DNA from: Escherichia coli
GTDB taxonomy: Bacteria; Pseudomonadota; Gammaproteobacteria; Enterobacterales; Enterobacteriaceae
DNA: 64,000 nt
Assembly: GCF_051903065.1 (NCBI RefSeq)
Contig: NZ_CP178438.1
Strand: one strand, 5' to 3'
In this document: positions 24,501-27,500 of the stretch, piece after piece
Layout: the number at the start of each line of letters is the position of its first letter
How positions within the stretch are numbered: position 1 is the first letter of the stretch
Position numbers: made by a program

Positions 24501-27500
24501 TGAAGAATTAGTCCCGGCGGATGCGCCGCTGTGGCGAACAATCAATACGCCACAGGGTAAAGGCGTTGTTAACTTAGGGGCGAGAGATATCAGGGTTTAC
24601 AGCGACGGTGATTTTCCACACTGGACAGGGTGGAAACTGGTGAACGATGATGCGGACACCAACAGCCAGTGCAATTCACCAACAATCCTGTGTACAACCC
24701 GCAATGACCTAAGTCGGATGATTTGTCATTTTCCGCTAGAATGGGACAGCACCACCGTGGAATCACGGTTTGAGTGGCTGAAATCACCCAATGACGTATT
24801 GAGTAAGCCGATGACAGAGCCTGACTTGGATTTGCTGATAGAACACTGTAAGGCGCTTTGTTTGGTAGATAATCCGTTACCTGCCAGGCGTGTATGGCAT
24901 TTTGATCCCAGGCAGTTTATTGCACATTTCAGGAAATGTGGGTGGTTAGGAGAAAATGATATTATAAGTGTGGTAAGACGTTATCAAAATGCTTATCCCA
25001 TGACATCAGAACTTACAAGACCATTAAGTAAAGACACTCTAATTGAGCGGATTACTAGCCAAGGACAAAATAGCAGTGGTGAGGTGATAAGACCTGCAGG
25101 GTTGAAAAATGAACTGTCAAAGTCACTAAGGAAGTACTTAATTACAACCCCATTGCGGATTGCGCATTATTTCGGTCAGATGGCGAGAGAAACAGGCAGA
25201 TTTGCGTCTTTTATAGAGAATGGTGATTCGAGTTATTTTGATATGTATGAGCCAGGAACAGAACAGGGACTTAAGCTTGGAAATAATGTTGTTGGTGATG
25301 GTGCAAGATTTAAAGGCAGAGGTACCATACATCTAACTGGTCGTGAGAATTATAGAAATTATAGAAATTATGGAAAGTATAGAAATCCGTCAGATGATGA
25401 TTTTTTTACTACAGAACCCAATAACCAACTCCCAGTTGAAAATGCCTATTTTTCTTGCGATGCCGGGGGATACTTTTGGGCAAGTAAGCAAAAATACATA
25501 ATGGTAAGCCATCGATTGACACCTAGTGGTAGTTTAGGCGTTAATTATTGGGCGGATAAAGGATGTAGTTTGTCAGATGCCAGAGAAGTTACACGGCGAA
25601 TAAACCCAGCAGCAGATGGCTTCGATTTAGTGCGTTGGCCAGCATTTGAGCATTCTTGGTATGTATTGAATGATGAAATAACACCTCCACTTAATTACAT
25701 AAGGATTGTTTAAAACAATGAATTTTAAAAAAACAATAATCATTTCGGTAGGTTTGATATTTATTTCATTCTCTTTTGTGGCAAAGTGCTCTCAACTCAA
25801 AAATTTGAATAATTACTCAGTGATGCTTTGTGGAAAAGTGTCAAATAATATCCTGGATGATATTGGTGGTTATAAAGAAAGAGATAAAAAATCCGAAATG
25901 GTAGATTTACTTATATTAATTAGTAATGACGAGCCTAACGGTGTTTCTGAGACCAAAGTGATTTCTAATGGTAAAATATATTTTAAGGGGGAAAGTACGA
26001 TGAACTTGGATGCCTCATTCATTATGACAATAAATGGTGGAGTTCATACTGACACTGTCACTTATATATCAAAGAAGAATAAAATTATCGGGGGCTACTT
26101 TTATAATAATGAGAGTAAAACTGATAAGCTTAAGGAAGTATATATCTCAAACACAGGAACTGTATATCGGTAATGACTCCAACTTATTGATAGTGTTTTA
26201 TGTTCAGATAATGCCCGATGACTTTGTCATGCAGCTCCACCGATTTTGAGAACGACAGCGACTTCCGTCCCAGCCGTGCCAGGTGCTGCCTCAGATTCAG
26301 GTTATGCCGCTCAATTCGCTGCGTATATCGCTTGCTGATTACGTGCAGCTTTCCCTTCAGGCGGGATTCATACAGCGGCCAGCCATCCGTCATCCATATC
26401 ACCACGTCAAAGGGTGACAGCAGGCTCATAAGACGCCCCAGCGTCGCCATAGTGCGTTCACCGAATACGTGCGCAACAACCGTCTTCCGGAGCCTGTCAT
26501 ACGCGTAAAACAGCCAGCGCTGGCGCGATTTAGCCCCGACATAGCCCCACTGTTCGTCCATTTCCGCGCAGACGATGACGTCACTGCCCGGCTGTATGCG
26601 CGAGGTTACCGACTGCGGCCTGAGTTTTTTAAGTGACGTAAAATCGTGTTGAGGCCAACGCCCATAATGCGGGCTGTTGCCCGGCATCCAACGCCATTCA
26701 TGGCCATATCAATGATTTTCTGGTGCGTACCGGGTTGAGAAGCGGTGTAAGTGAACTGCAGTTGCCATGTTTTACGGCAGTGAGAGCAGAGATAGCGCTG
26801 ATGTCCGGCGGTGCTTTTGCCGTTACGCACCACCCCGTCAGTAGCTGAACAGGAGGGACAGCTGATAGAAACAGAAGCCACTGGAGCACCTCAAAAACAC
26901 CATCATACACTAAATCAGTAAGTTGGCAGCATCACCCATATTAGGAATCTGGGAAAGAACAAGGTGCGCCGCTTTTTTTGTACTAAATAATTCGCATTTT
27001 AGTCACGGCAGAGAAGAAATCCGTCTTCATATTGTTTGCGATGTTCCTGATGAACTTATTGATTTCACGTTTGAATGGAAAGGGCTGAAGAAATTATGCG
27101 TGGCAGTCTCCTTTCGGTCCATAATAGCAGAACAAAAGAAAGAGCCAGAAATGACGGTCAGATATTATATCAGTTCTGCTGATTTAACCGCAGAGAAGTT
27201 CGCCACAGCAATCCGAAACCACTGGCACGTGGAGAATAAGCTGCACTGGCGTCTGGACGTGGTAATGAATGAAGACGACTGCAAAATAAGAAGAGGAAAT
27301 GCAGCAGAATTATTTTCAGGGATACGGCACATTGCTATTAATATTTTGACGAATGATAAGGTATTCAAGGCAGGGTTAAGACGTAAGATGCGAAAAGCAG
27401 CCATGGACAGAAACTACCTGGCGTCAGTCCTTGCGGGGAGAAGGCTTTCGTAATCTTGCCCTGGCATTATTGTCGTAAAAACGCATTACCGGACACACGA

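Follow-up and report, generated by a model that had tools for sequence, protein, structure and literature searches.

A single IS1 copy marks a 6-kb deletion within a T6SS cargo island of Escherichia coli

Elements of the IS1 family are about 768 bp long, carry imperfect terminal inverted repeats of about 23 bp, and favor AT-rich targets with G/C at both ends. Adjacent deletions mediated by IS1 were reportedly described by Reif and Saedler in 1975. The IS1A type is reported as a transpositionally active, replicative form that generates target duplications of 8-9 bp (PMC12428005), and the same article cites Turlan & Chandler 1995 for replicative deletions by IS1. Missing target duplications have been attributed either to adjacent deletion or to recombination between IS copies, and in the long-term evolution experiment all duplication-less IS150 events (14 of 14) were adjacent deletions (PMC11708052). 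Within clones of E. coli ST131 and ST410, insertions and deletions erode T6SS loci, and M23-family peptidase genes located downstream of vgrG have been noted as putative effectors (PMC10711316).

Here, we analyzed a window of 64,000 nucleotides (the whole stretch of DNA, to which all positions refer) from contig NZ_CP178438.1 of E. coli assembly GCF_051903065.1, in which an IS1 copy without target duplication lies between a putative T6SS effector region and the remnant of an H-repeat. The features of this region are as follows:

23632-25713, plus strand: putative T6SS effector gene, intact, 693 aa from ATG (ORF; RefSeq name M23 family metallopeptidase)
25718-26173, plus strand: clipped candidate immunity gene, 150 native codons plus an Arg codon and a TAA stop from IS1; full-length protein 167 aa
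26160-26168: left 9-bp flank CTGTATATC, followed in E. coli ECNB21-M121 by ATATAAATATT
26169-26936, minus strand: IS1 (IS1A type), 768 bp, intact (canonical ends and family matches)
26184-26687, minus strand: insB' reading frame (Pfam DDE_Tnp_IS1, 261 bits), reached from insA via an A6C -1 frameshift
26606-26881, minus strand: insA (Pfam Zn_ribbon_InsA and HTH_Tnp_IS1)
26937-26948: 12 bp CATATTAGGAAT, intergenic, in relatives located 3' of the M35 peptidase's downstream gene
26949-27463, plus strand: internally deleted H-repeat (ISAs1 family, ISEc1-like), 515 bp with 776 bp missing, both termini kept
26992-27453, plus strand: C-terminal remnant of an ISAs1 transposase, pseudogene (RefSeq annotation of the sister genome)

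The IS1 copy was identical to K-12 IS1A at 767 of 768 positions, with one mismatch. Its left end (IRR) reads GGTAATGACTCCAACTTATTGAT and its right end (IRL) is the complement of GGTGATGCTGCCAACTTACTGAT; these terminal inverted repeats were read directly and were also recovered in a repeat search (26169-26936). The A6C frameshift motif was present as TTAAAAAAC, at position 305 from IRL. With its full length, insA, insB' and the A6C motif all intact, the element is, as judged by its sequence, competent. An Rfam search of 20000-32000 returned nothing, and a promoter and terminator scan gave no signal above shuffled expectation.

The two 9-bp flanks of IS1 were CTGTATATC on the left and CATATTAGG on the right (26937-26945, the first nine letters of the 12-bp CATATTAGGAAT), and matched at 3/9 positions. 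No direct repeat of 4-14 bp flanked the element, agreement between the flanks being no better than chance, and a repeat search of the window likewise recovered no direct repeat bracketing it. The 12 bp were contiguous with an upstream GTTGC in the loci of relatives (L007, L008, L009, L010, and L012).

Both flanks were matched by E. coli ECNB21-M121, a near-identical genome with about six differences in 13.8 kb outside one mosaic patch. Specifically, window positions 17816-26168 had 22 mismatches (99.74% identity), 17 of which fell in a patch within vgrG (22991-23177), and positions 26937-32565 had a single mismatch in 5,630 bp. Between the two points that are joined by IS1 in the window, ECNB21-M121 has 6,019 bp. 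Alignment to this undeleted, collinear relative stops at 26168 and restarts at 26936/26937, which places the ends of IS1 without recourse to an inverted-repeat consensus, and the deletion breakpoints are exact in that they coincide with the canonical IS1 termini. By this comparison, the window allele is Δ6019::IS1, and the copy at 26169-26936 marks a 6,019-bp deletion. That deletion explains why the 8-9 bp duplication is lacking, a trait of the event and not of the element.

Based on the annotation and ORFs of ECNB21-M121, together with profile matches, the lost 6,019 bp comprised the final 17 codons of the gene that follows the M23 effector; an H-repeat of the ISAs1 family, which is another copy than the remnant beside IS1; a second PAAR with a truncated vgrG; a fragment of C39 type next to a Cpi1-like gene; and an M35 peptidase with its downstream gene. 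ECNB21-M121 and 33F4 keep two tandem T6SS cargo modules between yncG and pptA, and to judge from these genomes the ancestor of the lineage carried both modules in tandem as well, in the following order:

Module 1: PAAR, VgrG, M23 effector, 167-aa immunity candidate; then the H-repeat
Module 2: PAAR, truncated vgrG, C39 fragment, Cpi1-like gene, M35 peptidase, downstream gene
After module 2: the 515-bp H-repeat remnant, then pptA

As a living relative, ECNB21-M121 serves as a proxy for that ancestor, and the deleted interval could have differed from it in detail. Match lists also indicated the tandem arrangement for 32F4 and 33E. As a separate observation, parts of module 2 were already degenerate before the loss.

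An earlier note, made from the window alone, had given the two 9-bp flanks of IS1 exactly as found here. It took the copy to be something other than a simple insertion, with intervening DNA removed through an IS1-mediated deletion or recombination, a claim borne out by the 6,019 bp present between the flanks in ECNB21-M121; the alignment to related strains that the note proposed as a check has rebuilt the ancestral junction from that genome. The note also named two observations that would speak against its reading. Closer mapping of the ends uncovered no 8-9 bp direct repeat at IS1, and the same joint without IS1 was found in none of 5,426 complete E. coli genomes.

The left-hand gene, described previously as a clipped immunity gene, is indeed clipped, at codon 151 of 167, and has a 151-aa product; the immunity part of that description stands as a putative role, which we infer from position only. 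The order of PAAR/VgrG, effector, and small gene is as expected for a T6SS effector-immunity pair, and the small protein following the effector has an N-terminal hydrophobic segment and a narrow set of orthologues. It had no match in Pfam or NCBIfam, and the sister complete genome had no second copy of its gene. Orthologues as distant as 72% identity conserve the lost tail (H151-K167), in which DKCLDKFK is invariant. The M23 effector gene lies downstream of PAAR and VgrG, equals its ECNB21-M121 counterpart in length, and scored 23.5 bits against Pfam Peptidase_M23, below the 28.7-bit cut-off. The IS1 event clips the probable antidote gene of a toxin that remains. A bolder reading, to which we give little credence, starts from an intact M23-type toxin gene beside an immunity gene that lacks its conserved, Cys-containing tail and has no second copy: should protection depend on the tail, the lineage may have shut off T6SS delivery of this toxin, or the IS1 event may have made a self-sensitive strain that survives by other protection. 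Separately, and with equally little credence, the lack of any intermediate would leave room for a one-step IS1 insertion-with-deletion in which a target duplication never arises.

Among the 5,426 complete E. coli genomes, two carried both joints of the IS1 copy. The exact truncated product was recorded on 13 contigs, and the identical left joint was present in all of those that were read (7/7); draft contigs of the lineage end inside IS1. Draft-genome isolates with the 151-aa product include GCA_002941455.1, GCA_037286885.1, GCA_020422185.1 and GCA_013353385.1, along with the runs SRR31139428, ERR10321876 and SRR21143313. As it recurs in at least seven draft contigs, the left junction is a real, inherited marker of the lineage.

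The H-repeat remnant starts 12 bp from IS1, its left end being defined from two independent ISEc1/ISEc5 insertions. Its terminal inverted repeats (CAGGGAAAGA ... TCTTGCCCTG) are both present, at 26949 and 27463, and alignment breakpoints against a full copy (L002 4315-5605, 1,291 bp) gave the 776 bp that are missing. A complete ISAs1-family transposase has about 378 aa, with an N-terminal DDE_Tnp_1_assoc domain and a DDE_Tnp_1 domain; the remnant ORF matched only positions 201-314 of 314 in NCBIfam transpos_ISAs1 and only 139-200 of 200 in Pfam DDE_Tnp_1. The junction of the internal deletion (27001/27002) was identical (100%) in 41 complete genomes, and also in E. coli 042. For 39 of the 41, the immunity-IS1 joint of the window was absent from the matches covering that joint, and the three of these 39 that were read directly had no IS1. 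By these comparisons, the internal truncation is a separate, older event, unrelated to IS1. The idea that IS1 itself cut the H-repeat transposase was rejected, given the left terminus kept 12 bp away and the junction shared by so many genomes. Here the earlier note needs correction on two points. It had read the truncated transposase as a clue to the IS1 deletion, whereas the H-repeat keeps both ends and its older internal junction occurs without IS1; and the DNA that went missing is a whole second T6SS cargo module and a different H-repeat copy, rather than the rest of that transposase.

For the deletion itself, we favor IS1 insertion followed by an adjacent deletion of about 6 kb, with a probability of roughly 0.6. 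IS1 would first have entered at either of today's two junctions, with its usual 9-bp duplication. One of its ends would next have attacked another site in the same chromosome, about 6 kb off, by intramolecular replicative transposition, also known as adjacent deletion. Such an attack would leave a single IS1 with one original flank and new sequence at its other end, and the DNA in between would be discarded along with the other copy of the duplication. Which of the two junctions was the original insertion end cannot be told, and we infer the order of events and the mechanism from sequence comparison. No IS1 was present in the 20 kb around the locus in ECNB21-M121; IS1 therefore arrived after the split, which makes one insertion plus one deletion the shortest path. 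A precursor, having IS1 and a 9-bp duplication at either endpoint, was found in none of the 5,426 complete E. coli genomes, and neither predicted intermediate junction (GGCAGCATCACC joined to CTGTATATCATATAAA, and AAGTTGCCATATTAGG joined to GGTAATGACTCC) occurred in JGI metagenome contigs. With no duplicated-target intermediate, adjacent deletion is therefore not separable from recombination between two IS1 copies.

Such recombination, which we consider possible although rather doubtful, would have begun with two independent IS1 insertions, both oriented alike and each duplicating 9 bp of its target: one would have struck the immunity gene at its 3' end, the other a site 12 bp upstream of the H-repeat remnant. 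Recombination between the copies, dependent on RecA, would then have excised 6 kb and one IS1. Both nine-mers, AT-rich with G/C at both ends, look like plausible IS1 targets, and the outcome would be the very sequence observed, one IS1 between flanks that do not match. In the sister chromosome at least 38 other places match IS1, against a per-genome median of 13, and a second nearby insertion is not improbable in such an IS1-rich genome; in other strains, moreover, the locus attracts IS1 at three other positions. The route is also listed as a common cause of missing duplications (PMC11708052). However, three events (two insertions within 6 kb and a recombination) would be needed since the split from a relative that is only about six substitutions per 13.8 kb away, and no genome with a single or double insertion was found among the complete genomes and metagenome contigs searched. 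Very unlikely, in our judgment, is a one-step event in which IS1 arrived and 6 kb were lost in the same transposition-associated rearrangement, so that the duplication never formed. IS copies at the center of a deletion, lacking both a duplication and a detectable precursor, have been reported (PMC11708052), and a one-step route has been proposed for movements of IS5 and IS481. That route, however, was put forward for other IS families and is itself unproven; for IS1, the classical two-step route accounts for everything seen. No intermediate turned up in any collection searched, as a one-step event would have it, although failing to find one in a few dozen sampled relatives says little.

There is likewise only a slim chance of recombination between strains, in which DNA of a donor with IS1 in the immunity gene would have recombined into a recipient with IS1 upstream of the H-repeat remnant, with IS1 and PAAR/vgrG as anchors. 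The locus is highly mosaic among strains (M23-only, M35-only, RhsE, and tandem alleles), and the 17-mismatch patch in vgrG fits such exchange; yet both flanks are nearly identical to one genome, ECNB21-M121, over 14 kb, many flanking proteins have identical accessions there, and neither of the two IS1-bearing parents required was found. The chance of a misassembly across repeated IS1, or of a simple insertion with a decayed duplication, is negligible. Dozens of IS1 copies can mislead assemblers, but the left joint recurs in seven independent draft contigs and both joints in two complete genomes, and the flanks are collinear, in the same orientation and 6 kb apart in the relative, as a deletion predicts and a random misjoin does not; decay of a duplication is at odds with flanks that derive from two different, identifiable ancestral sequences. 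Other candidates were tried and rejected. That the window derives simply from the M23-only allele (PS10-3 type, L001), through replacement of about 850 bp by IS1, had first been suggested by near-equal spans (2,765 vs 2,768 bp), but the first 80 bp to the right of IS1 mismatch that allele and match the M35-module allele. Loss of the module by recombination between H-repeats, with IS1 arriving later, disagrees with the retention of the module-2-specific 12 bp and of the distinct left end of the remnant. Inheritance of IS1 from RhsE/ydcC-type strains with IS1 beside ydcC fails, as their junctions are at other positions.

The deletion accounts for an IS1 copy without target duplication, and the comparison rebuilds the ancestral gene order of a polymorphic E. 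coli T6SS cargo island. IS1 is trimming effector-immunity arrays: module 2 is gone, and so are its candidates for immunity, namely the Cpi1-like gene and the one that follows the M35 peptidase. Their loss may make the lineage killable by kin still firing those toxins, and the clipping may have left it less protected from its own M23 effector. The exact immunity-IS1 joint and the 151-aa product, seen in at least seven draft assemblies or sequencing runs and in two complete genomes, are convenient clone markers.

Compared with known systems, the locus resembles the T6SS erosion of ST131 and ST410 in that T6SS genes are lost or disrupted within a clone through IS elements and deletions (PMC10711316), but what was trimmed in this case is an auxiliary PAAR-VgrG cargo island, lying between yncG and pptA, and not the core tss cluster. 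With the H-repeats of E. coli Rhs/VgrG loci (H-rpt, ISAs1 family; ISEc1/ISEc5, ydcC), the remnant shares termini and the C-terminal third of the transposase, and it lies at the island's pptA-proximal edge, the position of ydcC in K-12-type strains; at 515 bp against the 1,291 bp of a full H-repeat, it cannot encode a transposase. The IS150 adjacent deletions of the long-term experiment (14 bp to 49 kb) share a duplication-less IS at the deletion edge, but involve another IS family, and there frozen time points revealed the prior insertion, whereas no earlier stage is available here (PMC11708052). Relative to known IS1 adjacent deletions, this is a natural chromosomal case, reconstructed by comparison with no precursor observed, and it has in common with them a single IS1 at a novel joint, a deletion starting from the exact terminus, no duplication, and an intact element of the active IS1A type. 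The event is an ordinary, routine rearrangement of a known kind, and implies no new mechanism or gene family.

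The region is the yncG-pptA interval of the E. coli chromosome, where the genes ran in the order ansP, yncG, PAAR, VgrG, the M23 gene, a small gene, IS1, the ISAs1 pseudogene, pptA, yddH, nhoA, yddE and the narZ operon. The features around the IS1 joint were:

23632-25713, plus strand: M23 gene (putative T6SS effector; product of 693 aa, RefSeq name M23 family metallopeptidase)
25718-26173: clipped small gene, entering IS1, which supplies its last sense codon and stop
26169-26936: complete IS1, 768 bp; minus-strand insA and insB' frame, with A6C frameshift site
26949-27463, plus strand: internally deleted H-repeat (ISAs1 family), holding the ISAs1 pseudogene

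The IS1 had canonical ends (GGTAATGACTCC... and ...GGCAGCATCACC) and was identical to the IS1A of E. coli K-12 except for one base. It passed as IS1 in every structural test apart from target duplication, the lack of which we attribute to the deletion described below. The 9 bp on either side (CTGTATATC and CATATTAGG) matched at three of nine positions, direct repeats of every length from 4 to 14 bp were no better than chance in a flank comparison, and a repeat search around the element found no direct repeat bracketing it, so that the differing flanks claimed in the earlier note were confirmed. In the same repeat search, the five bases outside each end (26164-26168, ATATC; 26937-26941, CATAT) nearly formed an inverted repeat that lengthened that of IS1; given the AT-rich palindromic ATAT context, we treated this as chance. 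A mechanically called ORF (26923-27453) began at a TTG within the IS1 IRL and crossed the joint in frame, continuing into what is left of the ISAs1 transposase; we found no support for its expression, the promoter scan being at chance level, and promoter and terminator scans together gave no signal over shuffled expectation.

To rebuild the ancestral state, the flanks were searched separately. The left flank (M23 gene and the 504-bp gene downstream) was complete in 31 genomes, the 68 bp right of IS1 were present at 100% identity in 41, and four genomes (ECNB21-M121, 33F4, 32F4 and 33E) were in both lists. Both of the two that were read had a tandem organisation with approximately 6 kb between the flank sequences, showing that the two IS1 flanks are parts of two different cargo modules:

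Module 1: PAAR, VgrG, M23 gene, 167-aa gene
Between the modules: H-repeat with an 825-bp ISAs1 ORF
Module 2: PAAR, truncated vgrG, C39 fragment, Cpi1-like gene, M35 peptidase gene, downstream gene
3' of module 2: 462-bp ISAs1 pseudogene, then pptA

Against ECNB21-M121, positions 17816-26168 aligned without gaps and with 22 mismatches, while 26937-32565 aligned with a single mismatch, and RefSeq accessions were identical for many flanking proteins of ECNB21-M121 and the sister genome 23CRST027. Of the 22 mismatches over 8.3 kb, 17 fell in a 187-bp patch in the 3' part of vgrG (22991-23177), a pattern resembling a short tract of recombination or gene conversion; 23CRST027 and 33F4 shared one VgrG protein accession. 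Between the alignment blocks ECNB21-M121 held 6,019 bp (NZ_CP083585.1 2423629-2429647) where the window has the 768-bp IS1, with ancestral breakpoints of ...AACTGTATATC|ATATAAATATT... on the left and ...AAAGTTGC|CATATTAGGAATCT... on the right. The window therefore carries a Δ6019::IS1 allele, and the IS1-associated loss of intervening DNA that had been proposed from the flanks is borne out by this relative. The lost DNA comprised:

3'-terminal 53 bp of the 504-bp gene
spacer of ~410 bp
one H-repeat copy
second PAAR gene
vgrG copy without its 3' end
111-123-aa fragment matching Peptidase_C39
96-aa gene that RefSeq calls Cpi1 (cysteine protease immunity protein) in 33F4
263-aa protein weakly matching Aspzincin_M35
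143-aa ORF downstream of the latter

The T6SS toxin-immunity pair Cpe1/Cpi1 has been characterised (PMC12136450). Decay of module 2 was already evident in ECNB21-M121, where vgrG is truncated and only a fragment of the C39 toxin remains; at the matching position PapM-32-1 had a gene for a 479-aa PAAR-like protein.

Among the complete E. coli genomes (5,426), the entire IS1 region was shared by two sister isolates only, 23CRST027 and 23CRST031, both of human faecal origin from Ecuador. A misassembly at the joint is unlikely, since the exact 151-aa truncated product of the small gene occurred on 13 contigs (NCBI drafts and Logan assemblies) and all seven contigs read had the identical joint of that gene to IS1, each ending inside IS1 as short-read contigs do. 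Both sister isolates had one base fewer in a C run inside IS1 (26436-26439), such that IS1 is annotated as frameshifted there, and 23CRST027 was also missing a G at ~20527; both places are intact in the window. Either the window is a different assembly or isolate from these two, or their base losses are homopolymer errors.

In a near-identical relative, the two sequences that meet at this IS1 are collinear, share one orientation and are separated by 6 kb, and the single intact IS1, which has no target duplication, occupies the joint precisely. On this evidence we consider an IS1-associated deletion very probable (roughly 0.95). As to the route, adjacent deletion is the likelier one. IS1 would have inserted at one endpoint with its usual duplication of 8-9 bp (PMC12428005), and intramolecular replicative transposition into the other endpoint would then have deleted the intervening DNA along with one copy of the duplication; for replicative deletions by IS1, PMC12428005 cites Turlan & Chandler 1995. 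A general framework for missing duplications exists (PMC11708052), in which all 14 duplication-less IS150 events of the long-term evolution experiment were adjacent deletions. Homologous recombination between two IS1 insertions would leave an identical product, and is plausible given that at least 38 other places on the chromosome match IS1, but it requires three events where adjacent deletion requires two, and we regard it as less likely. In ECNB21-M121 the 20 kb around the locus held no IS1, placing all events within a very short divergence, which is a second reason for favouring adjacent deletion. Recombination between strains is disfavoured by the fact that both flanks have the same nearest relative. 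No intermediates were found among complete genomes, where half-junctions would have ranked near the top and the flank searches gave unsplit empty sites only, nor among JGI metagenome contigs.

The truncated H-repeat, which the earlier note had also read as a clue to the IS1 event, is the one point of its reasoning that failed, the truncation being older. The H-repeat left terminus (CAGGGAAAGA...) was set by two independent ISEc1/ISEc5 insertions, and a full copy spanned 1,291 bp (4315-5605 of comparison locus L002). The remnant started at 26949 (CTGGGAAAGA...), 12 bp right of IS1, and ended at 27463 (...TCTTGCCCTG); its first 53 bp were joined to its last 462 bp at 27001|27002, with 776 bp missing internally, and its ORF matched only the C-terminal third of the ISAs1 transposase. 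An identical junction was present in 41 complete genomes, O145:H28 strains among them, and also in E. coli 042; IS1 was absent in all three junction-sharing loci read directly (L007-L009). As an allele the remnant is thus both old and widespread, and its position beside IS1 is no evidence for the IS1 event. The empty site upstream of the remnant was intact in 634 of 636 matching records. We rejected IS1 as the cutter of the H-repeat, given the retained left terminus 12 bp away and the junction in other genomes, and likewise loss of module 2 by H-repeat recombination, given that 12 module-2-specific bp and the distinctive left end of the remnant were retained.

Another H-repeat had left a left-end stump of 153 bp (20738-20890; CAGGGAAAGATTACGC... 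through the transposase start ATGGAACTTAA). Its cut coincides with the point from which the window resembles the DNA 5' of the second PAAR gene in the tandem genomes, with a 97% match from 20888 onward to comparison locus L010rc from 9870 onward. H-repeat copies or remnants thus flank all PAAR-VgrG cargo modules at the locus, a pattern suggesting that modules are shuffled or duplicated by way of H-repeats. The island is also a recurrent IS1 target. In the RhsE-type allele of 23CRST022 (L004 6001-6768), a different IS1, also without target duplication (flanks GAACATGTA and TGCTTATAC), removed ~105 bp from the ydcC H-repeat left end, and spans of the same size occurred in ST540 and roughly 10 further genomes; two other loci (L005 and L006) had IS1 at still other positions inside H-repeats. 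Duplication-less IS1 copies are not rare: the K-12 MG1655 reference IS1A (NC_000913.3 19796-20563; L020) likewise shows no flanking 9-bp repeat in its record (...GTAATTGCT and TACCTCAAT...).

The deletion left the putative M23 effector ORF intact and clipped the small gene directly 3' of it, a candidate immunity gene on the basis of its position, the N-terminal hydrophobic segment of its product and its narrow family, with 167-168-aa orthologues in E. coli, Pseudocitrobacter and Salmonella; profile libraries (Pfam, NCBIfam) returned no named family. A single Arg replaced 17 C-terminal residues that are conserved in orthologues down to 72% overall identity and include an invariant DKCLDKFK with a cysteine, and no second copy of the gene was found in the sister genome. 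The effector gene itself was 2,082 bp in the window and ECNB21-M121, and 2,073 bp in PS10-3 (the M23-only allele, L001 1464-3536), AHM8C212RI and 33F4, an in-frame 9-bp length polymorphism. In more than 100 genomes, including CFT073, Nissle 1917, ATCC 25922 and many extraintestinal pathogenic strains, the candidate immunity gene was reduced to a 163-bp 5' fragment (query 7-169, 98% identity), mostly unannotated, which is a relic of the M23 module.

IS elements and deletions are documented to erode T6SS loci in E. coli (PMC10711316), and the event in the window matches the textbook signature of IS-mediated deletion; it adds a new example to a known type of event, neatly reconstructible and unsurprising.
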